This document shows, piece by piece, positions 32,560 to 60,411 of a stretch of 64,000 bases of DNA. A program made the position numbers and the translations under genes. Location: the NCBI RefSeq assembly GCF_037042905.1, contig NC_087251.1, positions 7,690,001 through 7,754,000 of the forward strand, written 5' to 3'. The first letter of the stretch is position 1; every line of letters starts with the position of its first letter. Below the pieces are notes generated by a model, which was given only the letters and a program-made list of their open reading frames with translations, searched no databases and was not told the DNA's origin. The stretch comes from Lytechinus pictus (taxonomy: Eukaryota).

Positions 32560-33778
32560 CCGTAAGGGTAGCCTGGAGGCTTCTGGGGAGTAAAAGTCAT
32601 CTACTCTACGTAGGCTTACTCCCCATTGAAACCTGGGACGCTTAGGCATAGTCATGCACATACGGCCACAAAACCTGAAACTTTCGCCCCCGAGATTTCT
32701 ACTTTCCCTCTAAAAGATCTAGCCCTAAATCATGTACATGGGGTTCAACTTCATTTCCGACATTTTTGCGATATCGATTTCATTTTTAAAGAAGAATTCA
32801 TTAAAAAAAACGAGAAAAATGCGCGATGTGCGTGCTGTCGCCAAGCGGAAGACAAAGAAATCAAGATGGCGACGTAAACACGACCGTAAGCTCTTCCCAT
32901 CTTTTCATAACATTTTTCTCATTTTTTTAATGAATTCTTCTTTAAAAATTAAATCGATATCGCAGAAATGTCAGAAATAAAGTTGAACCCCATGTACATG
33001 ATTTAGGGCTAGATCTTATAGAGGGAAAGTAGAAATCTCGGGGGCGAAAGGTTCAGGTTTTGTGGCCGTATGTGCATGACTATGCCTAAGCGTCCCAGGC
33101 TTCAATGGGGAGTAAGCCTACGTAGAGTAGATGACTTTTATACTCCCCAGAAGCCTCCAGGCTATGTAAGGGCACTAGTATTCAACCTGTTTGGAGAATT
33201 TCCTCAAATATATAGAAATATGGAATTTAATAATTTCAGACCCGTCTTATTTGCAAGAGCAAATGTTGGTTATTCTTTTTGCATTATTTTTTTCTTCAAC
33301 CTGTCGACTGCGTGCGCGGGCGATCAAATTATACGACGGTGGTTTTTGGCACTAGTATTCAATCCGTCAGCACTAGTATTCAACCTAGCGATGAAAGATG
33401 GCCCTGTCTCTCGATCTGCCCTTGTCCCATCCAACTATGGACAAGACCATTTGAGATGAGACCAAACAGGGAATTAGTCAAAGCCAGAGACTTACATAGA
33501 TCTAGATCTAGTTTAGCAATCTAAACCATTTTGAGTTTCACTATCTACATGTATCATCACTAGGTTGAATACTAGTGCAATTCAGTGCAAAAGGTCATCG
33601 CCGCATAATTCGATCCTCCACGCATACAGTCGACAGATTGATAAAGAAAATATCGACAACAGATTACCCTGGAAATAACAGAGGTATGAAATTAAGATAA
33701 ATCCCCCATTTCTAAATATTTGGGGCAATTTGTCCAAATCTTTGAATTATGCCGGGTTGAATACTAGTGCCAATACGG
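32560..33778. mobile_element. Tc/mariner-like (CCGTA...TACGG, TA TSD) MITE, interrupted in its left TIR
   Basis: Rebuilt left end ccgtaagggcactagtattcaacc versus right end ggttgaatactagtgccaatacgg|TA. Confidence 0.75.
32569..33164. mobile_element. Foldback MITE with about 250-bp near-perfect TIRs and 8-bp TSD
   Basis: tagcctggaggcttctggggagta ... tactccccagaagcctccaggcta; TSD CGTAAGGG/TGTAAGGG. Confidence 0.9.
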
Positions 33779-34014
33779 TATATCTTATATAATAATTCAT
33801 AACAGAGTATTTAAATAACATGAAAGGCATTATATGAGTTCACTGAAATTTGCAATTTGGGAAATATCATGAAAAGACAATTATTGGATTGATTAAATTG
33901 TAATAAAGGGTGGAAAATTTGTTTAGATGTAATTTACATTTCAGGTGAGTACTACTTATGTAGTTGAGTAATGTATTCAGGTATACTTGCTAACATGGAT
34001 CATAATCAAATCGG

Positions 34015-34084
34015 AAGAGGGAGGCAGAAAAGGAAAGAGAGAGAGAGAAATGAAAAGGGAAGGAAAGAAAGAGAAGAAAGAAAC

Positions 34085-34117
<33 letters not shown>

Positions 34118-34180
34118 AAGAAAGAAAGGAAGAAAGAAAGAAGGTAGAAAATAAAGAAAGGAAAAAGAAAGGGGAGGCTG
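34015..34180. repeat. Purine-rich (GA/GAAA)n low-complexity tract
   Basis: Seen directly. Confidence 0.9.
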
Positions 34181-34219
34181 AAAGGTATACTCAAGCCATT
34201 GAGTTTAAGAGACAGAGAG

Positions 34220-34960: not shown

Positions 34961-36363
34961 TATACATGTAGTGGTGTTGATTGAATATCAACTTCATTAT
35001 AATTTTTGAAATATGCACAAATTATGGAGACCTCTGTTTGCAATTGGCGATATCTTAATGCTTGTAAGTTGTAGAGAGGTTTGGATTTTATTGGATTGGC
35101 CGTAAGCTAAAGGTAACAAAAATTGCAGATGTTTTGCGGTTTGCCAATATTTTCACAAATTGGATTTTAACAGACATACATGTAGTGATTCAAAGAATTG
35201 TGATTAGTAGTGTATGCAACTGTGCGCAAAATATGGTAAGCACGTTTTATGATCATGCTACCATACAGAGACTGAATCCTTTGGTCTATGCTCACCCATA
35301 AAGTAATGAAGTTATTTTGGATGTTAATAGGCTCCGTTTTGACAAGCAAAGCCGAATGACAACTCACCAATGCGAGGTTACTAGACTTTGGGATTTATCT
35401 CCTGTGTAATTCAAATTATTTAACACAGAATTGTGATATCTGTAGGGGAAATATGTGCATTAGAGATTGCACATGGTGGTAACTCATAATGGACCCCTAT
35501 ACATTCAACTGTTTCCCGACTGTTGCGTTGATTTTTTTTCCATACCAGGTGTATGGAAAAGCGTGGTACAGAAAAAAAGACGAAACTTGGGAATTTGAAA
35601 CTGCTCCTTGCTATCTTCAAGGTTTGTTCATGATTTTGAGTGCGGAGTTTGGATGATTTTTAAATGGCAAGCCGAGCTCAAGCATATGGCGCTAGGGGGC
35701 TTCTGAGTTTTTATCACTCGGCAATAATTTCGGGGGCGATTTCCAGATTTTATGTCGCTCCCAAAAGCATGAAATTGGGTGATTTCGAGGGCGACTTAAG
35801 GCATTTCCGGGGCAAATTCGCCCGCCGCTCCTGTATATCTTCTAATTGATGTTCTATGCCATAATAAGAAATACTGTTAATGAAAGCAAGATTTACATAC
35901 TGTATTTTACGTTGATTGCATCATGATTTTCCTTTGTAGCACTAAGAATGGGAAAAATTTAAAAGGGTACAACAACAAATATGTGAGGGGCATCAAGGCA
36001 AGTCGACAGGTCATCCAAAGATATGGTCTTGGACCACTTGCTGATTTAGGCCTACATGTACATGGAAACCCTACATATTTGACATTAGATGTATCTTGTT
36101 CATGTACATGTATCTTCCCCTTCATACTGTATAGTATTATAAATATGTTGTGCACACAATACTCATACTCAAATCCAACCTTTTTCCCCTCTTGTATCAT
36201 ATGCAGATTTTGGGATGATATTTTACTGGTACTTCCTTACCAAACACGACCAAACCTTTAGTAGCTAGAAGAAAGTTTATAACCAACACAGTAAATACAA
36301 AATGTGAGTGAAGGGAAATCAAAAGGAGATATTGGAGTAATTTGGTTGGCTATTGTGATCAAG

Positions 36364-36973
36364 ATGGCAGCCAAATCTGGACCGAGGTTCACTACGGATG
36401 AAGAGTTAAAGTCATTGAGCTGGGAGGATGTAGTAAGACGATTACGATGGTGTGAAAATGAAAGGATGAAGTTGCTGGCAGAACAAGGTGGTACCATGAA
36501 GGATATAAAACATCAGTTAATGTTGAAATCAAATGAGATACAAGCTCTCAAGGCTGAAAACCAGAAACTTCATTCAGATAATGTGGAGTTACGTGATTTG
36601 TGTTGCTTTCTGGACGATGACCGACAGAAAGGTAGAAAAGTGTCAAATGAGTGGCAGCGTTTTGGTCAATACACAACAAATGTGATGCGCAATGGAGTAT
36701 CTACCTATCAGGACAAATTAAGAGAATTGGAGGAACGGCAAGAAAAACTATTTCAGGAGAATATTGAATTGAGAGAGCTGTGCTTTCTATTGGACCAGGA
36801 AAGAACTGGCAATCAGAGTACTCTCCTTAGCATAGGCAATGGAATTGATTTAAGAGAAAAGACAAACATGAGCAATGGACCTTCATCTATATTGAACGAT
36901 GGACATTTATCAAAGGAAGGGTCTTCCAAAATATGGGGGAATGGTGGTGACATTTCATCCTTGCAAAACAATG
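36364..36973 (+). CDS. CCDC85: Coiled-coil domain-containing protein 85 family, coding exon 1
   Basis: Acceptor ends at 36206; AAGATGG start context; motifs ELRDLCCFLDDDRQKGRKVSNEWQRFGQYT and ENIELRELCFLLD; donor G|GTAAGT at 36974 (phase 1). Confidence 0.92.
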
Positions 36974-39861
36974 GTAAGTACTTTCCATTTGTTCAAACAT
37001 CTTTGATTATCACTATCAGTTAATACATGTACAGAGATGTACATGTAAGTTATCACAAAATTTGAAAAATCTGTTTTTAACACTAATTTACATTTAATGT
37101 TTTTCAATTATGCAGGAAAATTTATTAAAGGCTAATGAACTAGACTTGCAAATATGCATTGATTGGTTTGATTTTGAAAGTGAAATAAATTGAATAGATG
37201 GTCATTTTATTTCCCATTTATGTACATGTACATACACAAGTTAATAAGATGTTCATGATCATGTAGATTTTGAAGATCTGCATATTCTCTAGTACATACA
37301 TGCCATTTGATCTGAGAACATGCTGAGTTTTGATACTAAACATCACCTTCCCTGTTGGTAGTATTTTTTTTTTGTAATTCCAAAATATTATTTCTTTTTC
37401 TGTACAAGCACTAAAATTGAATACTATATTACTGGCTTTATACAAAGTAAAATTCTTAAAATGTAATCGAAATTTGATTTCAAATAAGGATGACATTTAT
37501 ATACATCATGTACTGTAGAAATTCAAGTGGTGAGTGATATTCCTTGCAGTCTCATTATATGTAGCATACACTTGTATGCATTCTACTTGTAAAATTCAAA
37601 GTGAAACTTTAAAAGGTAACTTTTTTATTTATGCCTCTGATTTTAATGACATTTAGTTTTGCAGTATGCTTGTTTGAAAATGAAGTTGGACAGGACTTTA
37701 TTTGCAAAATGTGTACCGGTAATGTTGCTTGTTTTTAGCAATTGCTTACTGGAGGCCTATGTACATGTAGAATGAAATCAGGAGTCTTTATGTACAGTGT
37801 ATAATAATGTTATACCTGTACAAGTTTAAATTAATACAATACATACAAGGTATTGTAAATTATGTATCTATTCTTCAGTTTAAGACAGATGATTTGATGT
37901 TACACATACTAGTATGTAGGCTTTGGAGTAAAACTCGCAGTTGATGCATTTGATCAGTTTTCCAACAATCAGCAAATGAATACTACATTTTACACAAATT
38001 GAATGGTCGCCAGATGTTGATTACTAATTTGCGACATTTTATTAAAATTACTTAAAACCTATTATCTTTGATATTTGAAAACAAAGTGCAAGATAACAGA
38101 TGAAATTTGTGTTACATACCCAAACATTTTATTACTTCAAGACACAACAATGACCAGCGCCGGCGATTGTGCATCATTCAGCTTAGTTGATGTGCATTAT
38201 GTACGTACATTTAGGCGCTACATACATTGTATATTGGAATACTTGACTGAGTCAGTTTGCTCATAATGTGTGACCAATGTACATGTACATGTGTATGTAT
38301 CTGACTGGTGTTGCCACATTGACTTGTACAGGAGTAATACATGATTCATGTTTCATATTTCATTTCCTGTCAAAATCGATAAAACAGAAAAAGATCAGAA
38401 TTTTATATGAAATTAAACCATCATCTCAACTCTCAGAAAAATGATGAATACAGTACATGTAAGTCATGATCATTTGAAGCATTGATAGAACTTTACACTT
38501 CAATGATAACAGAAAGGTATGTTTTGCATTATTCCACTTTAATAATGAATTATTATCGTTCATGCATGACTGATCACAGTTTGCAACTGTTGTAGGTGAA
38601 AAATAAAGGCTATTCTTTTCTCTTTCATATGATGTATAATTCATTAGATTTTATGAAAGCCAAGTTTAGTTTTTGGCTTCCAACATAGTTCATCTACTCA
38701 TTTTATAGTGACTTGTACTTTGTACAAATAATTTCTGTACTAATGTAAATAAAAACATAATCAAGTGTAGGCTATGAACCTTTGGTGTAATCTCGTCATT
38801 GATAAATGCAAAGGGAAAATCTTCATCTTTGAAATTTGTTTCAGTACTTACATGTACGTACCATGGAGGTATTGTACATGTATGACTAGTTGATGTGTAC
38901 TCCAGAGTCCAAACAATTGTCATTTCTATATCAAGCGTGTTTGGACAATAGACTCCAGTTTTATCAGTATAAAAAAAAACAGAATGCAAAAGAATGTCAA
39001 TAAATGATGAATTCCATCAGGTATGAGGGTTTTTTTTTCCTGTCTAAAATATTTCTCTGAAATATGAAATGCTGAAAGGTTGATTAACGTACATGTACCG
39101 GTAATTGCATAATTTAAAGTCATATGTGTACATGTTTCTGCTGTCATGGGGAGTACAATGTAGATTAGTGTTTGCTTACCCCAGACTTTGTGAAAACTTA
39201 CATATGTAAGCATTAAAAAAATGGTAAAAAAGCAAACTGTCAGGCCAGGTGAAAAGTAAGATAATGGATGCTGGCCATAAATCCTGTACTCTGTGATTTA
39301 TATCCGAATAGCGTAAAATTTACCATGAAAACAGACAATAATGCACCTTTAACCAAGGAGGTATCACTAAATCTTGTACATGTACATGTACCTCCTTTAT
39401 TTAACTGTACATACATGTACAGGTATGGTGTTCATCAATTACGTGCACATGACACGTATACTTGTACATTAACATGTACATGTATGAAAATTTTGAATGA
39501 CCTGTAGCTTGCAATGTACATGTATGTTATTGTTGCACCTTGCAATGATAGCCTTTGATAAACACGAAAATTTTAACAATTTTTTTTACCCAGTACATGT
39601 ACTTAGTACAGTGTATATGTTTCTATTTGAAAAAGTTCGGCAATTGTTTACATTTAATCATACAGATTTACATACATGTACATGTACTTGTACTTGGTTC
39701 AATCCAAGAACACCTATGAACATACACTGTACAATTCATTGTAGGTATGGTTTGCCTTTTTGTTGTTGTCTCACCTGAACAAAGTTTGGCAGAGACCTAG
39801 AATGCTAGTGACTTTTCCTGTTGGTTTGTTAGTCCGTTGGTGTGTTAGAAAAATGTTGAAG

Positions 39862-41784
39862 TTTTTGTCTCACCTGCATATCAGAGTGAGAATATACATG
39901 TACATGTAGGCGCCGCTTTTCCGATGGCGATGGTGGCATCAACATCAAAATCTTAACCTAAGGTTAAGTTTTTTAAATGTCATCATAACTTAAAAAATAT
40001 ATGGACCTAGTTCATGAAACTAGGATATAATACCGGTAATCAAGTACATGTATCACTAAACATCCTGTGCGAGTTTCAGGTTGCATGATCAAGGTAAAAG
40101 GTCGCTTAAGTTCAATGAACTTTGGCCAAGTTTGGTATCACTGAACATCCTATGCGAATTTCAGGTCACATGATTAAGGTCAAGGTCATGTAAGGTCAAT
40201 GAACTTTGGCCAAGTTGGGGGAAATTGTTGAATTACCATCATAACTTTGAAAGTTTATTGGTCTAGTTCATAAAACGTGGACATAAGAGTAATCAAGTAT
40301 CACTGAACATCCTGTGCGAATTTCAGGTCACATGACCAAGGTCAAAGGTCAATGAACTATAACTTTGGAAGTTTACAGATCTGATTCATGAAACTTAGAC
40401 ATAAGAGTATTCAAGTATCACTGAACATCCTGTGCGAGTTTCAGGTCACATGATCAAGGTCAAAGGTCATTTAAGGTCAATGAACTTTGGCCAAGTTGGG
40501 GTATTTGTTGAATTACCATCATAACTTCGAAAGTTTATGGATCTGATTCATAAAACTTGGATATAAGAGTAATAAAGTATCACTGAACATCCTATGTGAA
40601 TTTCAGGTCACATGACCAAGGTCAAAGCTCAATGAACTTTGGCCATGTTGGGGGTACGTATCTGTTGAATTACCATCATAACTTTGGAAGTTTATAGATC
40701 TATCTGATTCATGAAACTAAAGGCCACCGCACACCTTAAGACCCGACTGGTCGGCGACTGGCTTGCGACTGAGTAAGGGGAGATGAATCGCAAGGTAGTC
40801 ATAAGCCTCGACACCGCACACCTTGCGATCCGATCTGCGACTCACGCATGCGCTTTTTGCTTTTTGGCATTGCAACTGAGGAAGTGCGCTTACTACTGCG
40901 TAAGCGCGTTGTTTATCATATACGCGTCGTGCAACTCTACTGTCTGATTGGCTGGAAGTTGGATTGAGCTTGCGATCCAGTCATAAGGATTCGACATGTC
41001 AAATCCTTCCGATTTTCCTTGCGACTTGTCTCTGACCGGTCTGCGACGCACAAGCTGACAAGAGCCGTGACGTCACATCTCCCCTCACTCAGTCGCAAGC
41101 CAGTCGCCGACCAGTCGGGTCGTAAGGTGTGCGGTGGCCTTTAGACATAAGAGTATTCAAGTATCACTGAACATCCTGTGCAAGTTTCAGGTCACATGAT
41201 CAAGGTCAAAGGTCATTTAAGGTCAATGAACTTTGACCATGTTGGGGGGAATTGTATGGGTCTAGTTCATAAAACTTGGACATATGTAAGAGTAATATCA
41301 AATATCACTGAACATCCTGTGCGAGTTTCAGTTCACATGACCAAGGTCAAAGGTCAATGAACTTTGGCCATGTTGGGGGGAATTGTTGAATATCCATCAT
41401 AACTCAGAAAGTGTATGGATCTAGTTCATAAAACTTGGACATACGAGTAATAAAGTATCACTGAACATCTCATGTGAGTTTCAGGTCATTTAAGGTCAAT
41501 GAACTTTGGCCATTTTCGAGGTAATTATTAGATTGCTGTCATAACTTCCAAAGTTTATAGATATAGTTTATAAAATGTGGATATAGGGGTAATCAACTAT
41601 CACTGACAAAGTCACATGATCAAGGTCAAATGTCAATCATTGTCAATGAACATAGTATTGTATTGACCATGATATGAATGGTGTTTTTTGTGAATAATTA
41701 TTTTATAGTAGTTTTCAAAGTCAGCACTCCAGCTATATTGAATCGCACAGTGCAGTTGAGACTGCCAGAGGCGCTCCACTTGTT
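39862..41784 (+). mobile_element. Helentron/HINE-like element, copy 2 (about 9 internal repeats, nested MITE)
   Basis: Same ends and repeat unit as 17315-18300. Confidence 0.85.
40721..41140. mobile_element. PIF/Harbinger-like MITE nested in a HINE repeat
   Basis: aggccaccgcacacctta ... taaggtgtgcggtggcct; flanks TAA/TTA split the host atgaaac-tta-gacataag. Confidence 0.88.
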
Positions 41785-45175: not shown

Positions 45176-45992
45176 TAGGGATAGTGATTTTCCGTTTCAA
45201 AAAATTGCCTTTTCCGTTTCAGAAAATCTCAAATTCCGTTTCAGCATGTCAGAAAACGGAAATTCCGTTTCCCCATAGACTTTGTACACACGGAAAAGTG
45301 ACAATTCCGTTAACACATTGAATAGCAAAATCACAACACGCACACTCGCACTGGTCAAAATTTGTATCTGCTACTGTACCAACAACACAATAAAATCCGT
45401 TCTAATCGGATCTATGCGGGTGCATAAAATATTTTTACACACCCATTTTGCATGCATACATCCTCACCTTTCATATTATTAGCATTATTTCACGGTGAAA
45501 TGATATTTCATCGATAATTTTGGGGATTTTTAGACATCGTTATCATCAATCAACGGCTTTTCCCCAATCCGCCATCTTGGATTTTAAGACCACGATATCG
45601 TGCTGTTACATCTTCAAACGTAGAGGGCAGCAACACAAGACCGTGTACATGTAGTTGAACGATATGTGTGCATGTGAAGCCCAACCCGGCCGGCCGGGTA
45701 CGGGTAAGGTGCGGGGTACAAACGAGTGTGCTGATGTCGAGTGCAGTCACGATGTGTGAATTGTCATGATAGTAGCAAAGTGAGATCGTGTTTTCTGGGG
45801 TTTTTCACTTTTTTGGCCATTTAATATTCTCATTTTGCTGTGATTTTGGAGTAATTTCTGTTGCTATTCTGTGTATTTTGAGGGAAAATACGTTTTCCGT
45901 GATTTTCCGTTTGAAATGCCACTTTCCGTTTCAAAAGGCCCTTTCCGTGAATTCCGTCCGTTTTCCGCGATCGCGGAAAATCACTGTCCCTA
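45176..45992. mobile_element. hAT-like (TAGGG...CCCTA) element with 6-bp TSD
   Basis: tagggatagtgattttccg ... cggaaaatcactgtcccta; TSD CATAAA/CATAAA; subterminal TTCCGT repeats. Confidence 0.8.
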
Positions 45993-47484
45993 CATAAACC
46001 ATCTATGACAGAGAAGGTTTAAGTTCTTCATACAGTGCTCCTTTTCTCTGTGTCATTAGAAAATATGCTATTGTGTAACACTGAAGAACTCTTGATAATC
46101 TTCCATACACATTGTAGTTATATTTCAAGACAGATAAGATCAAGGCAAGTGTGCATATATTTTCATCAGCCTTTGTCGTTAGGGAGTAATCTATTTCTTT
46201 AGAATACTGATCCTATTAGTATGTACATGTAGGTCCATGCTATTAGTAATGACTTGACTCCTTACATGCCTCTAGATACAGGTACAGTGTACTTGCATTT
46301 AATTAAGATGACTCACTCCATGAATTCCTGCAATCAGTGTGATTGTACTGCATTACAAGGAGTTGTAGTCATGATCTATAGTACCTTTGCACTGGACTGT
46401 ACATTTATTGGTTAACACAAGATATCTTAACATAGTTTTCTGAATTGAAATTTGTAAATAATGATTTTCAAAGGGAAAAGAAAATTTATTTTACCTCCTT
46501 TTGTGTTGTCTTTGTCGAATAGATTCATTTATTGAACATCAATCAAATTCATCAAGCAAATAAAAATGTACCTGTAGGCCTACTTTATGTACATGGTGTA
46601 CATGTACTCATTGCCTTCATGTAGTGTGTATTGAAATTCAGCAAAGGAATGTGTTTATTTCTGTATCATGTAGTAGGACACAGCAACATTTATTTTTTCT
46701 AAAACATACTTCATTAAATAAACCCACTTATTAGTAAAGATGGCTCCTGTGACAATTTTAAGTAAATATTTGAGTAGTTTTAGCTGGAATGAATGAAACT
46801 TATTGTTTGATAAAAATATAACATTGTGTCAAAACAACTACTCTGGCCACAATATTTGTACCTGATTCCAGAATAAGGAAATAGTTGACAGCTTGTGTTT
46901 GCATTGTCAGGCCATGGATATACATTACTAGAGACAAACTCCATTCATATACAGTGTACATACATATACATGTAATTCAGTATTTTGTTTTTACATGTGT
47001 ATAGTTTTACAAGATAACTCTCCTGTTGAGTCCTACCGTTATATTTAATGGAATAAGGGCATGGTGTAATCCTGTCTTTGAATTTATTCAGGTACATTAA
47101 AAAAAAAGTTGGTCTCCCATCTCGGAGTCTCATCCCTGAAAGTTTTATCCTCTTTTATTTTTAACCTGCCTGTTATATTTCTTGTACTGTATGTTCCACG
47201 ATTTTTTATCTTGTAAATCTTTTGCAAATATTGTGATTTTTTATGATTCATCTCAATAAAAACTTCAATAATAAAAAAAGAAGGTACAGTGTATGTCATG
47301 TGAGGTATTGAAATGGCTTTCATGTACATTTATCGGTCTCATGCATGCACATGTTCATGTGTAGGCCTACTGTACATGTACATTTAATCTCATTTATACC
47401 AATGACAATTATGAAGCATACATACTCTATCTCTGAGTGATACAGAGGTTACCAAATACCAAGTGCATGTTATATTGTACATGT

Positions 47485-49791
47485 GGGCATTTTCACCACA
47501 GATGGACACAGAGGCAACAAAATCAAGTTGATATTCATGTCAAATGCTTTATGTTTTTTAATAAAACATGACCTGAAGTTTCTGAGACAAAATAATTTTC
47601 CGACTCTGGCAGCCATTTTTTATTTCAAAATGGCTGCCGAAGTATGGATACAAATTAGTGTTGAAAATAGTATATTGATACATATTTTGTTTTGACAGAT
47701 TTTTAAAGAACAGGTTTGATCATGTTGTTTTCGCCTGTGATTTAGCTTGCTATTATAACACTTTTTAAAATCCCACAGAAAGAAACACCAGTAATTCATT
47801 CATCTGATTAAAAAACATTGATGAAGTATGTGATATGGTATGTAATGTCAGTTACCGAAAACATGAACTTTTTTTTCTCATTTCCTGGAAAAGAGGATAT
47901 ATTATATGAAACTTGGTAGATTTCCTCTCTAGGTAACACCCCTCCCTTCGACACCAAAATTAAAGATAACCAATTAACAATGAAGCCATAGGGTACCATT
48001 AAATATATGTAATGTCAGTTACCGAGATGTAATGTCAGTTACCATGATAAAACGTTGGTTACCAATATTGAAATGCAAATATGTGGTCAATTTTATGGTG
48101 AAGAAATATTGTATACTTCTTTCACTTTAAAAGTCACACCAGAAGGAGCTTGCTATTGACTTTTAAAAGGTATAGTTCACAAGGAATACTATATGAAATT
48201 ATGAAGGAAGTTGCATTCCCATCGTACAAAAAAAAATTACAATGAAATTGTTTTGTACATGCAGTTACCAAGTACCTACAGTAATTGTTTGTAATTTTGT
48301 ATCAGACAATTTTTTGTTTGGTTTTCGAGGGGGGGGGGGTAGGGGGTACTTTTCCCAACCTATTGCCTAAATCTGCAATATTTTTTAAGCTTAACATTGT
48401 GATGAAGGGGATTTCCAGGGTCCCTTTTTTAGTTTCTAGGATTCTTTTGAGCATTGCCTCGTTAAAAGTAAATTCCTGGTTTTTATACCTGTTAGTAGTG
48501 TGGATGTGTGATACAATTTTGTTTTTGGTTTACAAGTATAGATGAAAAGTGAAATTTGACAGTTCTGATCAATGTTGCATGGATCTACTAAAACTGTTTT
48601 TTTTTCTAATTTACAAATAGTTCAGTTTCAGTTTAGAAGCTGGAGTTTATTTTTTGTTGACAGCTTAAAAAAGAAATTAGCAAAGAAAATGATTAAAAAA
48701 ATTATGAAGAGAATTGAAATCCAACAGATATGAACAAGCATTGCTTGCACTGACCAGAATAGAAATCAATAAAACTACATGGCTGCATGAGATTCGGGGG
48801 AGGGGTACGTGTAGCATAGGGGAGGAGACCCTTATTCATTTTGCCTTTTTTGAGGGGAGGGGGAGTTTGGAGAAGGATAAGGTTTAAAAAGTCATTATAA
48901 TACTGATGAATATATTATGGGTGTATAGTCAGAAAAATCCATGTGTACAGTCAATGCAATATTAAATTACTATAGGAAAACATGTAGCTGCTATGACCCA
49001 CCCCCCCCCCCCCCCCGAGTAAGTAAAACATACATTTCTTATCTTTTGATAATTAAAAATGTTAAGTATTATGAAACTTTTATGATTTTAAAAAGCCTTA
49101 CATATATTTAAGTACCAAGAAAATTATGCCTTTGAAAATCATATAGCACTGGTAAATGTTAATGTGTATTGTCAGTTACCGACAAGTAATGATAAAAATG
49201 TTCAAATCAAAGAAAGTAATTAAGAAAAAGAAAAGGTTTTTTCATAGAAATGTTCCTAGAAACTCGGGTATACTTCCACATCAAGCTCACTTTCATGTGA
49301 AGCCCTGCACAGAAGATACAATGCAATGATTCCACACATTTGACTTCCATGTGTTATCTCTATGGCAAATTAAGTGTAATGTCAGTTACCGTAATGTCAG
49401 TTACCAGCATGGTTGTGGAAAAATTATCATAGCCCCCAAAATACGAAAACGAATTGTTTGATATTTTGACACATCTTAACCTAGTAACGGAGGTATATTT
49501 ACATATTCAAAATATTACTCTATCTACTCAGGGACATGATATATTTCAATTTTAATGAACACCCTGAAATTGCATGTCCTTTTGCGTAATGTCAGTTACC
49601 GACACATTTTTGCTTGCTGATGCGTAAAAAAATGTGGTTACATAGGAAAGCTTAGTATCAGAGTATACAGCAAGGTTCACTTTATTAACTCTATCAAAAG
49701 CAAACTCCCATCATTTGTTGTTTTAGAGATACACACAATGAAAGGTGTGAAAACATTGTGCCGTGTAATGTCAGTTACCGTGAAAATGCCC
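47485..49791. mobile_element. Sola2-like non-autonomous element with 4-bp TSD
   Basis: gggcattttcac ... gtgaaaatgccc; TSD ATGT/ATGT; eight copies of GTAATGTCAGTTACC (one with a mismatch). Confidence 0.7.
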
Positions 49792-49950
49792 ATGTGTTGA
49801 TAACATGGTACCCTAGGAATTGATAATGTTAATGATGTTACACCTGTCTTGCAAGTCAGTGATAAGATGCTGTGTCACATGTTATAAAAGGAATTGTTTT
49901 GTATATTAAGTTTACAGTGTATGTGCATTGATTTTCCCCACATTCAGCTA

Positions 49951-51391
49951 CTGTATAAGCTGTTATTTTCGCGGTGGTTTTATTTTCGCGGATATTGCCG
50001 ATCGGCCGCGAATTTAACAATGCGCGAAAATATTGACACATTTATCAGTCAGTGCCAATGTCTCCAACAGCAAAGATTTGCTATTTGAAACTTTTTGTAT
50101 AGTGAGAAAATCGAGATATGCACCTTTATATGTAGAAAAAATAAGGTTTAGAAAGTACAGATAGTGATTCAAAAAGTTAGCTAGAATTTCACTTTTTTTT
50201 TCTCAAACAAAATCAGAGCCTAAACTATTTTCTTACATAATTTTATCGATATATATTCACTCACTGTAATATTACAATGTATTTTCCATGAAAATTTTTT
50301 AATTTATTGTCATCTGATTGACTATATACACACGTATTGGCAGCTATTTGCATACTCATTAAAGGAGAATGAAACTCTTGGAGCAAGTTAGCTTTTGTGA
50401 AAGCAGAAAAATCAAAGAATAAGATCAACAAAAGTTTGAGTAAAATAGGACTATCAATAGAAGAGTTATGAGCATTTGAATGTCAAGATCACTAATGCTA
50501 TGGAGATCCTCCCATTGGCAATGCGACCAAGATCTATGATGTCACAGATGAACAACTCTCCCCTTTTGGACACTGAAAATATACCCCAAAACATCTCTTT
50601 TTGCTCATTCTAATCATATGACAAACGATTCATCAATGATATAATGTTGTGAAACCTCTGTACTTGTCCTCCCATAAAGAGAACACCTCACCTTGTGATA
50701 GACTCTATAAAAGTGAGAATATAAGTGAAATAAGTACTAAAGTAATGAGGGAGTTGTACGTGTGTGACATCACAGATCTTGGTCGCATTGCCAATTGGAG
50801 GATCTACATGGCATTAGTGATCTCAATATTCAAATGCTCATAACTTTCTTATTATTCATTCAATCTTCCTCAAACTTTCAACAATATGTTTCTTTGATTT
50901 TTCTCTTTGATATGGATTCAGCTGGTTTCAAGGGTTTCATTCTCCTTTAATATTCATAAGTCACATGACCACAGCTTTTAGAGGGGTAAAAATCTGTTCA
51001 CAGAATTCAACATTTTTGCACTGAAACCAACTTTTTACAAAGTGAATCTTACAAAACACAACTTCAAAAGATTACTCTTACATATCAAACCGTGACATGA
51101 TGAATTTTCAGATCTAAAGGTACAAAAAAGTGAAATTTAAGCCACTTTTTCTCCACACTTTGTTACAGTTTGTAACTGTTTTTACTGGGACATATTTATG
51201 TACATAGGACACATCAGCAAAAGAATATTGAGAATCAAAGTTTTGCACATAGTTTGCACTAAGTTCGCTTCTCCGATATGCTGTGGAAGTATTTTGTACA
51301 TCTTCTGATCGCGAATTCAACAACCCGCGAAAATGTCGGGACCCCCGCGAATCGAGAAAAATTCTGTACGCGAAACTAACAGCTTGTACAG
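49951..51391. mobile_element. TA-flanked Tc/mariner-like element hosting nested insertions
   Basis: TA|ctgtataagctgttattttcgcg ... cgcgaaactaacagcttgtacag|TA. Confidence 0.7.
50363..50946. mobile_element. Kolobok-like TTAA element, family B
   Basis: TTAA|aggagaatgaaac ... gtttcattctcct|TTAA; long internal inverted repeats. Confidence 0.85.
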
Positions 51392-52310
51392 TATGATAGA
51401 GTAAAGGTACATGCACCATGTCATCCCAAATTTATATTTGACTCATAGAAAAGGAGGAATCAGAGGGAGAATGAAAAGGTCTGGCTGCTTTCATACATGT
51501 ACATGTAAGGATGAGGACAAATTAATTTTTGTTTTCAATATTGAGAAAAATGGCTCATGATTTTGATATAAAAGAGGATAAAGGTTTGATAATCCTTAGA
51601 ACTGTAAACAGTATAAATTGCATACTTGTAAGTCTTACTTATAAGAGATAAATTATTCAACATTTCTCTTCTGATTCCATGTTCACAATATCCTTCCATT
51701 TTATTGTCAGATTGCAGATTTTCAGTTCCAGTTCATTTGTGAGAGAAGTTGATGTACTGTATGTTTGCCTCAGTATTTCTGATACAAAATGGATATATGA
51801 CCAAGAAAATTGCTTGGTTTAAGAGAAAAGAATAGATCAGAAGTTAGAGATATTATGTTATTAAATGCATTGATCCGAATCAAACTGTAGTTTAGGAATA
51901 TAATTATGGTGATACAGTATTCTTTGTTGTCCATAATCAGGAGGTCAAAATGGTATTGTACACAATGTAGGTACATGTACATGTATACATGTACATGTAG
52001 GTTTTGACAGTTTGCAGTTAAACACCAAATTTATCCATTTGTATTATAGAAATACACCATTATTTATTATTGCAGCCTTTGCAGGTATATTGTCTTGTTT
52101 ACATTTTCTTCAAATCCATATTCTTAACACAAAGGGAGTTTACCCCCCCCCTCCCCCCCCCCCAAAAAAAAAAAAAACAGTGAATAAGCCAAAATAACTC
52201 ATAACTCAATATTGATAATTTTTTAACTTGAAAATGATTTCTTATACATTTGATATTGCTTGTCAAATTGTTTAGTAGGCAGATGTTAATCAATTCTACA
52301 TACATGTACA

Positions 52311-52356
<46 letters not shown>

Positions 52357-52675: not shown

Positions 52676-53264
52676 CCGGGGGGGGGGGGGGGGGAGCGTC
52701 AAATATGTTTAAAGGGGTGTTTTTTTTCAGTTTTGGACGTGGGCCGCGCATGCACTCGTTAAGGCTATAAAAACCACAAGGTTTTCACAAAAAAGGGTGG
52801 TTTTGAAAGACTGGTCATTGGTCAATCGCAGGATCAAATGTATTTAGGGTATTTTTTTTCTTCAAAAGCTTGTTTTTAAGACTAGCCAAACGTAACATAC
52901 ATGTATACCTTGTAATTTAAAAATGAATTATTACCTGATGAATTTTGGATGAGACTTATTTACAGTGTTTACAATGTATTCCTCTGTAGTATTTTATCCT
53001 AACTGCACTGGGGGCATGCAAACACATGACTATAGTTTTGTCTATTTAAGCTTATTTTTAGCAAGTAGACAAAACTTGTTTAGGTGTCATATTCTTGCAG
53101 CAACTTGTTAAGGGGCTAAAATGTGCAAAATGAAGCCTGTGAAAAACTTGTTTAGGGGCTTATTTTGCACGCAGAGAAAAACTTGTTTAGGGAGTGTTTT
53201 GAAATACATGTAATTTGTTCACACATGTGTACAGCAATACATTTGACTGCCCCCCCCCCCCCGG
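52676..53264. mobile_element. Unclassified MITE with CCG(n)...(n)CGG ends and 8-bp TSD
   Basis: Perfect TSD CCATTTTC; gtcaaat/atttgac subterminal IR; internal aacttgtttagg repeats. Confidence 0.75.
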
Positions 53265-54067
53265 CCATTTTCTTGGCAGGTTCATACATTTTGTAATGTT
53301 TTCTTCAGTAAAATGATATATCATTGTATTGATTGACATTAAATACTGAAATTGTAGGCAACAAAGATGTTGAGATGTTACACGGCAAAGCTTATAAACA
53401 TGACTCTTTTGAAAGTTTTGACCAAATGTGATCTCTGGTGACGTTACTTGTAGATTTCTACATGTACATGTTATGGGGGTCATCCATTTGTCTCTCTGAC
53501 ATTTATTATTGAGATAATTTAAAAACTGTTTGAATGGTCAACTTAAAACTTGTAGGGAGGACAATTTGATAGGTGTTTACATGTACACTTACATTGTAGG
53601 TACATGTATCAAGGTCATCATACACTTTACATACATGTATACGCTACAAAGGTCATGTTTATAAATAATGGTCTCTACATGTATATCATATGTCCACTGT
53701 AAAATAGAAACATAATTTCCCAAAATCATATTACAATGTACTCTACATGCCATTTCTTCTAATTATAAAAAATAATTTTCTTAGAAAGAATTTATTAGTT
53801 TAAAAATTATGTACACAAGGGACTAATAATGTCTTCTGCATGATTGTCATGGTATTTGATACCTCATATCCCAATGTTTAGCTTTGTCATGCCAATCTTC
53901 ATAATAGTAAACAGTGTTTAATCAAAGCAATTGAGGAGATGTCAAGAAAGTGCAATCAATACCCCCCCCCAAAAAAAAAAAAAGACACTTTCCATAATGT
54001 TTTACAGTACCCTCATATTTTGATTAAAAGAGAATAAACAATATATCTTCTTTTTTTTTATTGGCAG

Positions 54068-54172
54068 GTGTTGGAGGTTCATGACATGTTGGAGCGAGAA
54101 ACACCACCGAATCACCTTGAAAATGACCATATGAACACCAATGAGAAAGCTATTGTCAGGGAGATGTGTAAT
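54068..54172 (+). CDS. CCDC85: CCDC85 coding exon 5 (VLEVHDML...EKAIVREMCN)
   Basis: T-tract + GCAG acceptor, AAT|GTAAGT donor; conserved VLEVH and EKAIVREMCN. Confidence 0.9.
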
Positions 54173-54612
54173 GTAAGTCGACCAATCTAGGTTTATCCCC
54201 TATAGAACTTGACTGGCTTCTGTTACTATACATTTTGTATTACTGTTGGGTTATATTCTTTCATTGTTCAGTTTCTGCATTGCAAATGTATTTATTTCTT
54301 GTCACTTCCTAATTTTGTATCCTGTTCAATATACATGTACATGCCAAATATTCTATATGTCTTTGATATCTTCCAAAAGTATAGAGTTGAAACCAGTTGT
54401 TTAAAAGAGATATCATTTGAAATTTTGTTTTCATGAACTCTTGTCTAAAGTTTAATTGTTGTACTTCAGCCCTGGGTTTTTTTATTTAGAAAAAAAAAAT
54501 GTCTTTACTGATGAGTAATTTGATCATGTTTTTCTTCACATACCACAGAATGCTGAAGTATATGCACTCTTAGTAATGCTAATCTGATATCATTGACTAT
54601 ACTCTTTTATAG

Positions 54613-54825
54613 GTGGTGTGGCGTAAACTTGGTGACAACCCTGCCAACCCCAATGGAAACACTAATGGTAGCAGCAACAGCAGTGTCAGCAACCAATCAC
54701 AGCGTGGCCAAGCTCCACCCAGGTACAATAACAGTACTACCAATCCTACAGCTAGACCAACTGGTTACATCACTCCTCCGTACAGTAGTGGTAGTACAGG
54801 CAGTCTTGAAAGGAAAGGTATTTAA
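54613..54825 (+). CDS. CCDC85: CCDC85 terminal coding exon (VVWRKLGD...ERKGI*)
   Basis: cttttatag acceptor; conserved VVWRKLGD continues from MCN; TAA stop. Confidence 0.88.
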   Translation: MVWRKLGDNPANPNGNTNGSSNSSVSNQSQRGQAPPRYNNSTTNPTARPTGYITPPYSSGSTGSLERKGI

Positions 54826-56077
54826 TGGCAGTATCTATCAGTTCCACCCTCACAATACTGTCACCCATTTTGGTAACGGCTACAGGAAACCCTCGGGATA
54901 GGAGAGATAAGTGTGATTGTGTGGAAGGAAGATGTATTCAATTCCTCTTTCACAAATTTCAGCAGGGTACATGTAAGGCAAGCAGTTGTAAAACGGAACA
55001 TACTTTCCTAGATTATGTGTCTGTCAGCCTGCACCTTATTATAGCACTGTCATCCCTGAAATTTTGTGCTGCAATTCATTTCCATTTGGAAGAGATAAAT
55101 TTTATTTTCAATGAAAATGTATTCAGTCATCACTGCCATTTCCCTTCCGAACCACTTTGGTACCAACACAGTACTATTATCATATGACTTTAAAGTACAC
55201 CTCTTTAACGAAACAAAAGTATTCAATAAGCCACACCCCATTCCCTTTTCCTTCAGTCATATCTGGTAATGTATATTACCTCTTCCAATAAGACAGGCTA
55301 GTTAACAGATTTTCACATTTCTGAGGAGTGTTAAATCTGGTATCGAATCTCGTTAGTATTATAAGATTACATACATATATACTTCAAGATAAGGAGGAAG
55401 TGTAATGCCTGTTTTTTATGCCATGTCTTTAAAGTGATAAATGGCTTTATCAGGTTCAAAGTCTTTGCCCAATACCCAAGATAAAGATTAATTCACATCA
55501 TGTTATGCTTGATCTTGATTATGCAACAGTGATGGCTTATTGTTATTTCTATTTTTTATTGTTCTATTTTAATAGGAAAAAAAATAGTGCTGTGCATTTT
55601 GAAGTAGACAAATCATATACCATATCTGATATGCACATGTACATTTATCTTTCTATCTGAATGCATTTTTTAAAATCAAATGACATGATTGGTGGATATT
55701 GTAAAGGAGGTTGTTGATTATGAATTGAATATATGGTTTAAAATGAAAATAATGATTTTAATTCTTTATTGATGTGAAATTCCTGATTTTTTGAAAAAAA
55801 CCCACTTTGATGATTAACAATGAAATCGGTGATAAAGTTGAAATAATAGCGGCACAATCTTTCGATTTGATAATAAGAACAATACTTGCTGTTTCAAAAT
55901 CTTAAATGATGCAGGCTCAACAATTGTCTGGAGCGACACAGGATCTCACATAAAATGTTGCTTGTTATGTGTTATCCTTTCTCACCCCCCCAAAAAAAAA
56001 TTACAGTTTGTAATATACCATAAGCTCTGATTGGATGATGATTTGTTTGTATTGGAGAATCCCATGATTTCTCAGTA

Positions 56078-56551
56078 GGTGGTTTCAGACCGCCTCGAAG
56101 TTTGTCAGTTCCAGGTATTTTCTGATCGGGAAATTTACCCGATCAGAAAATACCAAGTAATATTGGCAATGTGAAAGCAAATTTCGCGTAATCTCCCCAA
56201 AAGAAAATACCCTCTAAATAGTAGGTACTTGTCAAAATTATGAAAACTTTCGTGGGGATTTTTCCAAGGTCGCAGGTATTGTGGCAATGTGAAAGCAATT
56301 TACGGGAACTTTTAGCCCAGCGTGTAGTTGGGGGCGGGTGCCGTGGGTGGCTGCTGAGCTAGTGATTTTGAATTTCGCGCCTTGCCTGCTTATCAGACCA
56401 TACTGCGCATGCTCGTAACTTCAGGAACTTATCCCGAAGGGTATTTTTCGGGGCGGTGTGAATGCAGGAATAATTAATGGTTATTTTTTAGCTTTAAAAA
56501 GTTCTCGTAATTTAACAGGGATTCTTATGATCTAGGCAGTTTGAAACCACC
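56078..56551. mobile_element. MITE with Harbinger-like ends in the CCDC85 3' region
   Basis: ggtggtttcagaccgcct ... aggcagtttgaaaccacc. Confidence 0.7.
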
Positions 56552-58050
56552 TAATAAGGTATCTTGGTAGTAAATTTTCTTGCATGTTCCATAACACTGT
56601 GTACATTATTGTACACAATGATATTCACCAGAGTCCAGATTCTTTTACACTCACTTCTCTTTGAAGAAGGCCATAATCTCCCTATTGTGAATGGCTTTAA
56701 GAACTGAATGGCCATTATTCGCCCAGGGTCACCCTTCTATTCATATCCTGTATCAACTCTTTGAAAAAGTTGTGACAGTTGGGATTGTGATCTCAACAAG
56801 AATTTATTCAGATTTGGAGGGCAAAGTAACTTTATTTGAATGGTGACCATAGTGTGGCTATCTCTCATTAGCCAAATTTGTTTTTTAAGCTACATTTGTA
56901 ACAATGAAATTGCACTTTATGACTTAAATGTTGAAAGTGCATGAAGGTCTGACAAGTGTGAAGTAGAGTGTACTTCACACAATCTTTCTCATGCATACAG
57001 TATTTCGAAATTGTTGTACAATCCTATTGAAATATATTGAAATTTATTTAATATTCTAGAAATGTCAGATTTCATTCAGTGATTACATCACATGCATCTA
57101 TTGTGAAAGCGTGAATCTTTATGAACATCAGTTTTAGATCTAAGAGAAGTCAAGCTGCACAGTGCACACCATGAATAATAAGAGAAATATCATGTAAATA
57201 GAATACTTTTTGTGTACATATGCACAATAATACTTTTTTACATCATTGAATTAAGTACAAATATATTTACATGTAGTTTTAAAAGATATGAGGAAAACCT
57301 CTTGTAATTGTAATAAAGTTGCAAATTTTTGTAATTTGTACTCTTGAAGTTAAAGCATTTTTGTAACATACATTTTCTGCATCAGATTTTTAATGTAAAT
57401 AATTTTTGTACCATTGTAAATATTTTGTAAATTATACACTGTATTTGCATACTATTTGAAAATTATCCAATGTTTCTTGTGCTGTATCTCAAGAAGCATT
57501 TATGTTTACCCTATTGTGATGTAAGACAACAATCCTTCAGACATGGAGTTGGAACTTTGCAAACAATTATGAGTATCTTAACTTTATCACATATTGTTTT
57601 TTACTTTTTAAATGGTTTCTATGAAGAAAACAGAAAACAAAATGATGATATTGATTGATATCCATTTACACTGCAGTAAGTATTCATACATGTAGTTAAA
57701 CAAAGAAGTTGGGAATGACAGGAAAATAATGAATTTTATTTATCTTTGTAATGATATTAAAAATGGGTCTAAATATGATGATAACCCAATATTTAAAGTT
57801 GTTTCTATGTACATGTAATTTTGAAAAAAAAAGTATATCGCATTCCACTTTTTCCAAAGTTTTCTTCTTTTTATACTCAACTCATATTTTTTTGTGAAAT
57901 GATTATTAGATTTTAAGGCAGATAAGTGTTGTATTGTTATATTTCCTTTAACTCATGATTAAGAATTAATTACATTGCAAGAGCATATTTAATGTATGTA
58001 AACCCTGTCCTGTGTTCAATGTTGTATTTTCAATACTCTCAAATACATTC

Positions 58051-58352
58051 TGCAATTTATAGCAAAGGATATTCAAAAATCATGACATGCCTCCATCCTC
58101 TACTTTTGCAGTAATAGTCAACTTCACATTATTAAAGCCTTCATGTGTCAAATCTATATTCCATGATTTCAACGTACATGAATACACCTGCTGCATACAT
58201 ACACTGTATGTATGCAGCAGGTGTATTCATGTACGTTGAAATCATGGAATATAGATTTGACACATGAAGGCTTTAATAATGTGAAGTTGACTATTACTGC
58301 AAAAGTAGAGGATAGAGGCATGATTTTTTAACATCCTTTGCTATAAATTGCA
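58051..58352. repeat. 302-bp palindrome with a 1-nt centre at 58204
   Basis: 58095-58203 is the exact reverse complement of 58205-58313; the outer arms are imperfect. Confidence 0.95.
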
Positions 58353-60411
58353 ATAAAAAAATCTTACACTGGATCTTTAATTGCCACAATGAGGTCTTAA
58401 AATTGATTACCAAAGATTGTCTCCATCTAATTACATGTACTGGTGTTGTTGGTAATATTTTACTGCAGGTCAGCTGCAAGTGAATTTATGTGTTTCTTTC
58501 TATTTCATTCTTCTTTGGTCATTTCCTTCTGTCTCAATCTTCCTCTCTTGATTCTCTTCATTCAATGTTGTGTGTCTACTGTACTTTGTACTGATGTGTC
58601 TAGTCTCTATGGTAGATTTGAGGTAAGATTCATTAAATGAATATCAGAAAGCAAAAGCTACCTGACGGAAAAGCAATTGAAAAAAAATATAGTATTTGGG
58701 GGTTTGTTTTTAAAACGTTTATTTCAGCATTAAAGTTCATTATTGCATTGTTGTCAGCAATCAAGAGGTATGGAAGACGAAGCACTATTGCAATTTCTAC
58801 ATGTTTCTGTGCCAATTTAGCCAAATTGTAGCAGAAACAATGCATCTGAAATAACCATGCTTGATGACTGACCTGTTTCCCAGCCAGAATCAATCATTTT
58901 GTTTTCTTAGATAAAATACAAAATCAGAAAGCTGATTTGACAATTAGTGATGAATAACAAACATACATGTACCCTATATATCTGTTTAACTCTGTCCTGG
59001 CTTTGCCATTTAACAAAATGAAACATATGAAAAGTAAATAAGTGATGTTTCTGTCTCTGTAGATTTATTTTGTTTTTTATTCATGCGAATTTGTTCCAAG
59101 AACAATCTTGTATAGCTCTACGTGTATCTGAAAACGTTTTACTGATTAGATTACTGGGATCCCTACACCATACATCGTGTGTTACGAACTTATGACTTTA
59201 ATTTTTTTTAGATGTAATGATGAAACATACCGATTGTGCATGAAATTTGAAAGCAGCATGTCTGAAATGCACCAACCTAACCACAAATTCCTTACTTTCA
59301 TGGTTAATATGAGCAAATTGTTGTTGACTGTTGATTATTAATAAAGATACATTCTCTTTTTATTGCTTTATCAAAACAGACAACAGTTGGTTGACTGTAT
59401 GAAAGTGGGATGAAGAAACAAATTTTAGTTAATTTTAGGATTTATTTTTTGAAAACATGAATACAGGAGAGTAGAAAGTTTGTAAATATGAAAAGACAAA
59501 TTAGTGTGATATGATAAGACCCATCGATTCAATAGGAATAATGTCCTGTATTCATCACATTATTGGAATGGTAAATAGATTTTGATTTTGTATTCTCTTG
59601 TATTTTATCACTTCAGAGCAAATACCTCAACATATATTAATCTGCTTGCTTTACTACAATTTGCAAATGTATGTATTCAACAATATAAAGCACATTACTG
59701 GTTTTCTACTTAGTATTTCTTAATTTTTATGTAAGTATTTATGAGGATTAATTTCTCTTTCTATTTATTTGCTCATGATGGATATTAAGTTTGTGCCCAA
59801 AACTATTGAAAAAAAGTTTAATTCTTGTGTTTTTCTAGTAATTGTTTGGTTGGTGCATGGAGCTATTTATTAGCTCCATGGTTGGTGTATTCATGATTTT
59901 TAAACATCAATACGCATCATTATGAGAACATCGCTGTAATCTGTCCTCTATCAAGTGACGTCAAGGTTGGGTGAAACGGTCTATTGTAAATTAAACTCAC
60001 ATTTTAATATTTATTTTGATATTGCAAATTTAAAAAAAACCATGTTGCATACAATTTGTCTCATATACATGTATTTCAAAGAAACCTGTTCTAAAGATTA
60101 TCACTATGTTTAGATCTGATTCTGAGCCTGTATGCACACCAATGAAATAAATCTGACCAAAAATATCAACATAACATGATGGGGAAGAATGGATTGGTTA
60201 GCAACCTTTTTTTTTTGTTCTTTTGCCTCACTCTCTATACCACAAATTAGCATTGTATTTAGTGTTAAGGGGTATAGAAAAAAGTTATCTTTCCTTTACT
60301 CTTGCATTAAAACAAATTCTAAAGCAAATTTGTTTATTTTGCATAACTGTATCAAGAGGCTTTATATATAGAACACATTGATTATATTGTCTGTTTCCAA
60401 CTATAATCTAT

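Follow-up and report, generated by a model that had tools for sequence, protein, structure and literature searches.

A TA-bounded 8-bp word, dense around a CCDC85 gene of Lytechinus pictus, as a probable Tc1-type excision scar

Overabundance of the word around CCDC85

The palindromic 8-mer TACATGTA is about 30 times too frequent around a CCDC85 gene of Lytechinus pictus. The gene lies in a 64,000-nucleotide stretch of contig NC_087251.1 (NCBI RefSeq assembly GCF_037042905.1, positions 7,690,001 to 7,754,000 of the forward strand), referred to here as the window, in which positions are counted from the first letter. TACATGTA probably arises where 6 bp are inserted at a TA dinucleotide, most likely as a scar left when Tc1-family elements with CA...TG ends were excised, and the patch in which it is concentrated likely reflects a property of the domain. 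Copies of TACATGTA and of its sister words are called scars below in this qualified sense.

The 64-kb window contains 69 exact copies of TACATGTA. Single-base composition predicts 2.3, and 100 dinucleotide-preserving shuffles of the window give a mean of 1.86 and a maximum of 7. Most of the copies (61 of 69) lie between 33,500 and 60,100, the first at 33,546 and the last at 60,073, and 58 lie in 36,000-60,100. Between 36 and 60 kb there are 57 copies in 24 kb (2.4 per kb) where the genome baseline described below predicts 4.7 (Poisson P ~4e-41), a local excess of about 12-fold over a genome-wide level that is itself already raised. The sequence contexts of the copies in the window all differ, and the copies are therefore not members of one dispersed repeat. 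An 8-mer census of the window shows an excess of the entire TGTACATGTACA family, with 69 copies of TACATGTA versus 38 of the other palindromic register, ATGTACAT.

This concentration was noticed in an earlier sequence-only reading of the window, the counts of which hold up well. Its estimate of roughly 50 copies in 36-60 kb was slightly low; it placed about five copies in the unit of a B4GAT1-like gene (there are five, in 12.1-16.4 kb) and about one between 16.5 and 33.5 kb (there are two, at 24510 and 27779). Its expectation from composition of about one copy per 24 kb is close to the computed value, and the stacking that it described at 51972-51999 is borne out by four copies.

The main features of the distribution are listed below (no strand assigned). 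Contig depth refers to contigs of four public runs, which are RNA-like in behaviour; CpG o/e is the ratio of observed to expected CpG.

33546..60073: scar-dense patch, the 61 TACATGTA over 26.6 kb amounting to 2.3 per kb, some 12-15 times the baseline of the genome
38849..40052: densest sub-cluster, with 15 TACATGTA in 1.2 kb of a CCDC85 intron; contig depth marks most of it as single-copy DNA
51972..51999: four TACATGTA that overlap or abut in a stack, at 51972, 51978, 51986 and 51992
52301..52352: double scar adjoining an (AT)18 microsatellite, an ATAT-rich site of the kind preferred by Tc1 elements
36047..36054: TAGGCCTA, a second scar word, abutting a TACATGTA; TAGGCCTA recurs in the patch at 46575 and 47362
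47381..51493: scar-free gap in the patch, 4.1 kb of dispersed repeats with no TACATGTA and a contig depth of ~470-17,000 (four runs)
16500..33500: scar-poor intergenic stretch with 2 TACATGTA, most of it not CpG-poor (CpG o/e of 0.72-1.09 beyond 20 kb)

Within the patch, a recount by contig depth, in which the ten copies at 39377-39908 are counted as unique DNA, gives about 4 TACATGTA per kb in bins of single-copy depth versus about 0.9 per kb in dispersed-repeat bins. The lack of scars in the 4.1-kb repeat block would be expected if scar writing continued while the repeats were arriving. Related words are also raised in the patch: TACAGTA/TACTGTA occurs 18 times (3.1x), TACATA/TATGTA 55 times (2.1x), TACAGTGTA/TACACTGTA nine times against about 0.9 expected (about 11x) and TACCGGTA four times. 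Not raised are TAGGCCTA (3 copies, 1.3x) and control TA-words (0.8-1.2x). No strand asymmetry of the non-palindromic scars is evident in the patch (30 TACATA versus 25 TATGTA; 8 TACAGTA versus 10 TACTGTA).

Origin as a 6-bp insertion at TA

The origin of the word was examined by comparing sites with paralogous repeat copies. In 1.464 Mb there are 491 TACATGTA sites, of which 72 have a paralogous repeat copy that spans the site; the top alignment class of each was scored. At 18 of these 72 testable sites the top class is a clean 6-bp gap that leaves TA, as compared to 1 of 326 for four control words pooled (TATCATTA 1/31, TAATAATA 0/119, TATTTATA 0/58 and TATTATTA 0/118). The other 54 sites comprise 2 with another 6-bp gap, 29 with other indels (12-bp gaps and low-complexity sites among them), 14 with the same word in the paralogue, 4 with a substitution and 5 that are unclear. 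TAGGCCTA is likewise found as a 6-bp insertion at TA, at 3 of 15 testable sites. Four sites in the window itself have been verified in this way (no strand assigned; a slash marks the insertion point in the paralogue):

39895..39908: double scar TACATGTACATGTA, a 12-bp insertion at one TA; the paralogues shown read GAGACTA/TAGGCG, and among the 13-14 that span the site the commonest forms carry the 12-bp gap
40045..40052: 6-bp insertion at TA inside a ~160-bp repeat unit, reading AAGTACATGTATCAC here and AAGTA/TCAC in 5/5 other repeat units; 68 paralogous alignments span the site, the commonest forms with a 6-bp gap
45646..45653: 6-bp insertion at TA, where the paralogue at locus L129 reads CGTGTA/GTTG; the scar lies within an 813-bp TA-flanked inverted-repeat element with GG...CC ends (45176-45992), and contigs of the four runs show a 6-base omission at 45644, a difference that is repeat-derived
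53205..53212: 6-bp insertion at TA, where two paralogues read GAAATA/ATTT

The proposal of the earlier reading that the word arises through insertion of 6 bp at TA and not through substitution is thus sustained by the comparison with controls together with these four sites.

An insertion census that is unbiased as to word leads to the same class of event. It covers 1.264 Mb, in which 3,825 small insertions were scored against paralogues. Among 6-bp insertions with TA duplicated, CATG ranks first with 11 rows (7 clean independent events, 2 of tandem type and 2 extra copies of one shared event); the other cores are GGCC (3) and CCGG (1). The 5-bp insertions at TA carry CAG (3) or CTG (2), the 4-bp insertions carry CA (3) or TG (2 independent, after removal of one site inside a young Tc1 element itself), and a single 12-bp insertion carries CATGTACATG. 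Only classes of Tc1/mariner type recur in the census. Such forms would be expected if an excision left 2-4 terminal nucleotides in place, as described in excerpts of PMC6943129 and PMC12632400. A sister series of scars is accordingly present beside TACATGTA: +4 (TACATA/TATGTA), +5 (TACAGTA/TACTGTA), +7 (TACAGTGTA) and +12 (double scars). A scar origin of TACATGTA is well supported.

At one TA position of a repeat family, one copy has TACATGTA and another has TACAGTA (L108:3102 and L028:2676), with a bare TA in 15-32 paralogues; a scar also stands at a shared TA of a second repeat family in L141:6460 and L152:1985. Both cases look like recurrent hits at favoured target sites.

Genome-wide level and patches

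The baseline was taken from 60 random 10-kb pieces (600 kb) of the 812-Mb assembly. This sample contains 117 TACATGTA (0.195 per kb) where a first-order model expects 14.0, and the word is therefore common everywhere in the genome. Its counts are over-dispersed, with an index of 3.33 per 10 kb and a maximum of 16 per 10 kb. TAGGCCTA occurs 52 times in the same sample, 11.5 times the first-order expectation, and at four window sites outside the patch.

CpG o/e stood in for germline methylation. Bins of 2.5 kb that are CpG-poor have 0.282 TACATGTA per kb versus 0.135 in the rest (2.1x), and density is negatively correlated with CpG o/e (Spearman -0.22, P 0.005, 5-kb bins). Of eight dense 2.5-kb bins in the random sample, seven are CpG-poor, versus 40% of all bins (P 0.007). 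When 264 kb around the window are considered, the CCDC85 patch starts where CpG o/e drops from 0.78 to 0.37 and fades by ~68 kb.

Further patches were located from pairs of rare triple stacks, of which the genome holds 449 in the TA-bounded register versus 113 in the AT-bounded register of the same repeat. The three regions analysed around such pairs are patches of 30-50 kb with 1.4-2.1 TACATGTA per kb and are almost wholly CpG-poor; each has one edge at or near a transition from CpG-poor to CpG-normal DNA and the other edge inside CpG-poor DNA. Over the four patches, the +6 word TACATGTA is 9-15 times the baseline, the +5 words TACAGTA/TACTGTA 2.4-3.1 times, the +4 words TACATA/TATGTA 1.2-2.1 times and TACCGGTA 2-11 times (11 in 141.6 kb versus 8 in 580 kb), with TAGGCCTA at 0.4-2.4 times and control TA-words at about the baseline. 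As the +6 and +5 words and TACCGGTA are all raised, at least two end types share the patches.

The dense DNA is thus a minority of gene-sized patches inside CpG-poor DNA and not gene bodies in general. A CpG-poor state looks nearly necessary for a patch but far from sufficient. The claim of the sequence-only reading that the motif marks transcription units in general is not supported: CpG-poor DNA is only about twofold denser, a CpG-poor neighbour of the window (described below) is at baseline and the B4GAT1-like unit holds only five copies. Its interpretation as a whole therefore survives in part, as to the origin of the word by insertion at TA, and lacks support as to a mark of gene bodies in general.

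Flanking sequences and candidate source elements

The flanks of TACATGTA were analysed with both sides folded together and with the genome sample and the window scored separately. The -3 base is A in 47% (sample) and 66% (window) of half-sites versus 33% in the background, the -2 base is T in 46-49%, and the -1 base is a purine, T being depleted there to 17% (sample) and 9% (window) versus 32%. This pattern is partly a continuation of the hexamer (...ATG before the word), yet it persists after removal of those half-sites, and the flanks of TAGGCCTA show the same pattern without any hexamer periodicity. The flanks resemble in direction the Tc1 target consensus CAYATATRTG given in an excerpt of PMC9635669.

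Elements of the appropriate type reside in the genome. A search for DDE_3 transposases gave 150 scored matches of 729 candidates, most of them with intact 364-aa open frames. A young Tc1 family is represented by one copy at L085:447-2350 and by 11 further loci (L083-L094), and 40 copies were examined in L095-L134; several loci have mirror-image or partial double copies. The copies are 99.3-99.7% alike over ~1.9 kb. Their ends are TA/CACTACTC...GAGTAGTG/TA (TA/CACTAC...GTAGTG/TA), with TA directly outside 73 of 74 ends, and their target pattern is A-W-A/TA/T-W-T (A at -3 in 53 and at -1 in 65 of the 74 ends). The flank signal of TACATGTA is weaker than that at these ends. TA-targeting cut-and-paste elements with CA...TG ends are thus active or were so very recently, and Tc1 elements with the ends that the earlier reading had postulated for the authors of the word do exist in this genome.

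The young family is unlikely to be the main author of the scars in the window. It rarely inserts after G (2 of 74 ends), but G is the commonest -1 base in the window and is found at 48% of the half-sites there. One-mismatch relatives of TACATGTA number about 36 in excess beside 61 perfect copies, which corresponds to ~0.07 substitutions per site, a rough figure obtained with a background model of order 2 only. Scars diverged by ~7% are likely to have been made by older CA-ended families and not by the resident young one.

Other end types are suggested by the sister words. TACAGTGTA/TACACTGTA and the +5 words point to elements with CAG...CTG ends, and such elements, beginning TA/CAGTGCGT..., are present nearby, at loci L015 and L022. 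The inserted CATG letters match the ends of TA-flanked inverted-repeat elements resident in the genome. Inverted-repeat scans revealed no convincing family of TA/CATG... elements; several apparent TA/CATG... pairs proved to be inner parts of long palindromes (32611-33120 in the window, and L024). TA-flanked elements with GG...CC ends are found at 45176-45992 and 56076-56553. Pfam scans of the open frames in two other dense loci (L061 and L051) found nothing.

Proposed model and alternative explanations

The proposed model for the writing of TACATGTA is as follows. An element would duplicate its TA target on insertion. On leaving, two end nucleotides would remain on each flank, and end-joining would seal TA+CA+TG+TA. 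The patch would represent a property of the domain, such as a germline chromatin or methylation state in which inserted elements were cut out unusually often; the elements would be gone, with the scars alone remaining. According to the abstract of PMC3680223, CpG methylation raises the excision of Tc1/mariner elements of the IR/DR type more than 20-fold in cell assays. Stacks of scars are partly accounted for by repeated hits: the window has eight overlaps of +6 scars, of which uniform re-hitting predicts ~1.6 from ~2,300 TA sites and 61 hits, and about 4 when unevenness below 1 kb is allowed for. Re-hitting thus explains much of the stacking, and 6-bp slippage may add to it. A bolder extension, in which scar density is a fossil map of germline competence for Tc1 excision and methylated gene-sized chromatin domains of high excision competence have been overwritten with 2-4 scars per kb by elements of which no other trace is left, is offered tentatively as a possibility.

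Several observations weigh against the model. Since 29 of the 72 testable sites show other indels, 14 have the motif in common with paralogues and 4 show a substitution, not every copy need be a scar, and 56 of the 61 copies in the patch are inferred scars. No orthologous pair of an occupied and an excised site was seen: the differences shown by the contigs of the four runs are repeat-derived, and the assembly contains no second haplotype of the locus. The patch has no resident CA- or CAG-ended element in inverted-repeat scans of the window, and a census of TA-flanked termini in 864 kb contains no abundant TA/CA... terminus. The frequent G at -1 does not match the young Tc1 family, and the stacks may owe something to slippage. 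A strongly CpG-poor domain of 64 kb, situated 36-100 kb upstream of the window, is at the baseline with 11 copies, and most CpG-poor DNA has no patch. TAGGCCTA scars are not patchy (index of dispersion 1.23) and are somewhat commoner in CpG-rich DNA. In the abstract of PMC3680223, methylation was without effect on Tc1 itself in the same assay. Finally, the usual scar of Tc1 in C. elegans is +4 (excerpt of PMC12632400), whereas here the +6 form TACATGTA is the commonest (7 clean events versus 5 of +4).

The alternative that is hardest to set aside is a trail of local hops, in which one or a few CA-ended elements re-inserted nearby and left one scar per hop, the overlap with CCDC85 being a coincidence. 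Cut-and-paste elements commonly hop locally (P element ~50-fold within 100 kb, Sleeping Beauty 30-80% local; excerpt of PMC7827188). The scars cluster at every scale, as seen in the index of 3.33 per 10 kb and in many pairs 15-60 bp apart; rare triple stacks occur in pairs 10-30 kb apart; and the patch has no excess of the GG-type scar TAGGCCTA. A trail model places an element at the end of its own trail, and the flanks of present Tc1 copies count against it: around the 40 young copies there are 74 TACATGTA in 318,097 bp, which at 0.233 versus 0.195 per kb is the baseline. Further points against a trail are the absence of a resident element from the patch in the inverted-repeat scans, the rise in all four patches of TACCGGTA, which has a different end type, and the position of one edge of each of the four patches at or near a CpG transition. 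Three of the 40 young copies (L108, L112 and L128, one end each) lie 2-7 bp from a TACATGTA, where ~0.2 would be expected; this counts in favour of a trail, and it speaks for repeated use of very good micro-sites. Local hopping is rather unlikely as the explanation of the patches. The patch is probably neither a general property of gene bodies nor the trail of one locally hopping element, and a property of the domain is favoured, without proof, over a single trail.

The remaining alternatives concern the word itself. If TACATGTA were a piece of a (TACATG)n microsatellite spreading by replication slippage, the continuation of the flanks as ...ATG in 39 of 138 window half-sites, the eight overlaps, the period-6 arrays given by Tandem Repeats Finder and two 6-bp indels within stacks that resemble unit duplications would all be accounted for. 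Slippage cannot, however, make a first unit from a bare TA, which is the state that paralogues show, and as the origin of the word it fails on this ground. In addition, about 20 of the 69 window copies have no hexamer continuation on either side, such that many stand alone; the unequal registers of triple units (449 versus 113) indicate that arrays come in TA-bounded quanta; and TAGGCCTA, TACAGTA and other forms arise alike without periodicity. A microsatellite origin is accordingly very improbable. No more probable is a functional word, in the form of a protein- or RNA-binding site that selection maintains in clusters within particular introns and untranslated regions. Palindromic 8-mers are a usual form of dimer binding site, and the copies do cluster in gene-sized domains inside transcribed DNA. 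Against this, the copies have a stereotyped origin by insertion, also inside dispersed and tandem repeats; sister words with other cores behave alike; the excess of one-mismatch relatives is that expected for free decay; and no such animal binding site was found in the literature, among the matches listed. Least probable of all, to the point of being negligible, is the decay of methylated CpG, in which methylated gene bodies would have lost TACGTGTA or TACACGTA by mutation to TACATGTA. In its favour, CpG-poor DNA has about twice the density of the motif, and CATG is one transition from CACG or CGTG. The precursors are nevertheless rare (10 and 9 in 600 kb versus 117 TACATGTA), the strongly CpG-depleted 64-kb neighbour is at baseline, and neither precursor stands at any paralogous site (0/72). 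The comparison of paralogues thus refutes CpG decay as the main source and excludes a route that the sequence-only reading had named among those that would undo its proposal.

Genes and other features of the window

The genes of the window and one reverse-transcriptase fragment were identified from open frames, Pfam domains and contig depth (compared over 36001-56000):

36207..36973, + strand: CCDC85 exon, with an open frame at 36295-37020 (Pfam CCDC85, E-value 1.9e-56) and a four-run contig depth of ~45
54613..56000, + strand: next CCDC85 exon, at the start of which (54613) contig pieces begin in 4/4 runs; it extends past 56000
8192..9226, + strand: exon of a B4GAT1-like gene (Pfam Glyco_transf_49), in a CpG-poor unit at 8-20 kb with only 5 TACATGTA
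29906-31270, - strand: reverse-transcriptase fragment (Pfam), inside the scar-poor stretch

The 17.6 kb between 36973 and 54613 have a depth of 2-6 where they are single-copy. Given the exon-like depth at 36207-36973 and from 54613 onward, the scar-dense stretch consists mostly of a 17.6-kb CCDC85 intron, the next exon and downstream sequence. Run X14 has an intron allele that differs from that of the other three runs at 36944-37457 and 38064-38927, one contig differing by 17 letters and 19 gap letters and another by 4 and 8, respectively.

Several other sequence types are conspicuous. Tandem and dispersed arrays of a ~160-bp unit with many AGGTCA-like words lie at 17424-18093, 40135-40701 and 41350-41606; contigs that match the unit reach a depth of 10^4-10^5 in the four runs, such that it must be either extremely abundant or highly transcribed. 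Runs of 15-26 C or G bases are very frequent throughout the window (for example 2314-2330, 28573-28593, 48997-49016, 52143-52163 and 52678-52694). CCCCCCCC is present in 80 copies in the window and in 606 copies in the 600-kb random sample. A near-perfect palindrome at 58086-58322 has two 118-nt arms that are 99% complementary and 1 nt apart, and lies within a longer inverted repeat (58051-58352).

Significance

Excision scars are textbook knowledge at single experimental loci. Here they stand at about one per 250-450 bp over whole introns. At ~0.2 per kb genome-wide, extrapolation to 812 Mb gives on the order of 10^5 copies of TACATGTA, a measurable share of the indel load, and with such abundance the surviving transposon copies greatly understate past cut-and-paste traffic. 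Because the scars are recognisable in the bare genome sequence, their patchy, CpG-poor distribution provides a handle on germline insertion, excision or the choice of repair. Motif discovery in this and similar genomes should treat TACATGTA as a mutational signature and not as a regulatory motif. If the reading as a fossil map were true, scar words could allow the ancient chromatin state of the germline to be read from sequence alone, and the traffic of cut-and-paste elements through some genes would have been orders of magnitude above what the surviving copies suggest.

Comparison with known systems

Tc1 and Tc3 of C. elegans share with the system proposed here the TA target and the CA...TG ends, and in both a short remnant of the ends stays between two TAs. 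Of the somatic Tc1 scars of C. elegans, 78% belong to the +4 type (TATGTA or TACATA; excerpt of PMC12632400); dense fields of scars fixed in the germline are not described in the excerpts cited here. The statement of the earlier reading that Tc1 is established to leave TACATGTA needs correction, as TACATGTA is the less usual product. The dominance of the +6 form, which keeps both overhangs, is a difference from the model system and not a textbook expectation.

The canonical scars of Sleeping Beauty, TACAGTA/TACTGTA (excerpt of PMC6943129), have the same composition of TA, terminal nucleotides and TA. These words arise here as 5-bp insertions at TA (5 events) and are raised 2.4-3.1 times in patches; they are a minority class in L. 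pictus, and they are known from experimental excision and not as a genomic excess of a word.

The +6 scar of Minos, a member of the Tc1 family, reportedly consists of TA, four end nucleotides and TA (Arca et al. 1997). By analogy, a CATG-ended element with a 4-nt stagger would yield TACATGTA through cohesive ends.

In a comparison of Asian and African rice, excisions of DNA transposons were inferred genome-wide from the two species (excerpt of PMC4423477). That study likewise relies on sequence comparison and argues that excision is a force in genome evolution. The scars in its excerpt are complex, variable and spread across the genome, without fields of this kind, whereas here one stereotyped word reaches 2-4 per kb in gene-sized patches. 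A literature search of titles and the beginnings of abstracts found none that describes a genomic excess of TACATGTA as scars, among the matches listed. The kind of scar is a known one, that of Tc1/mariner elements; what differs in L. pictus is the dominance of the +6 form, its density and its confinement to gene-sized CpG-poor patches.

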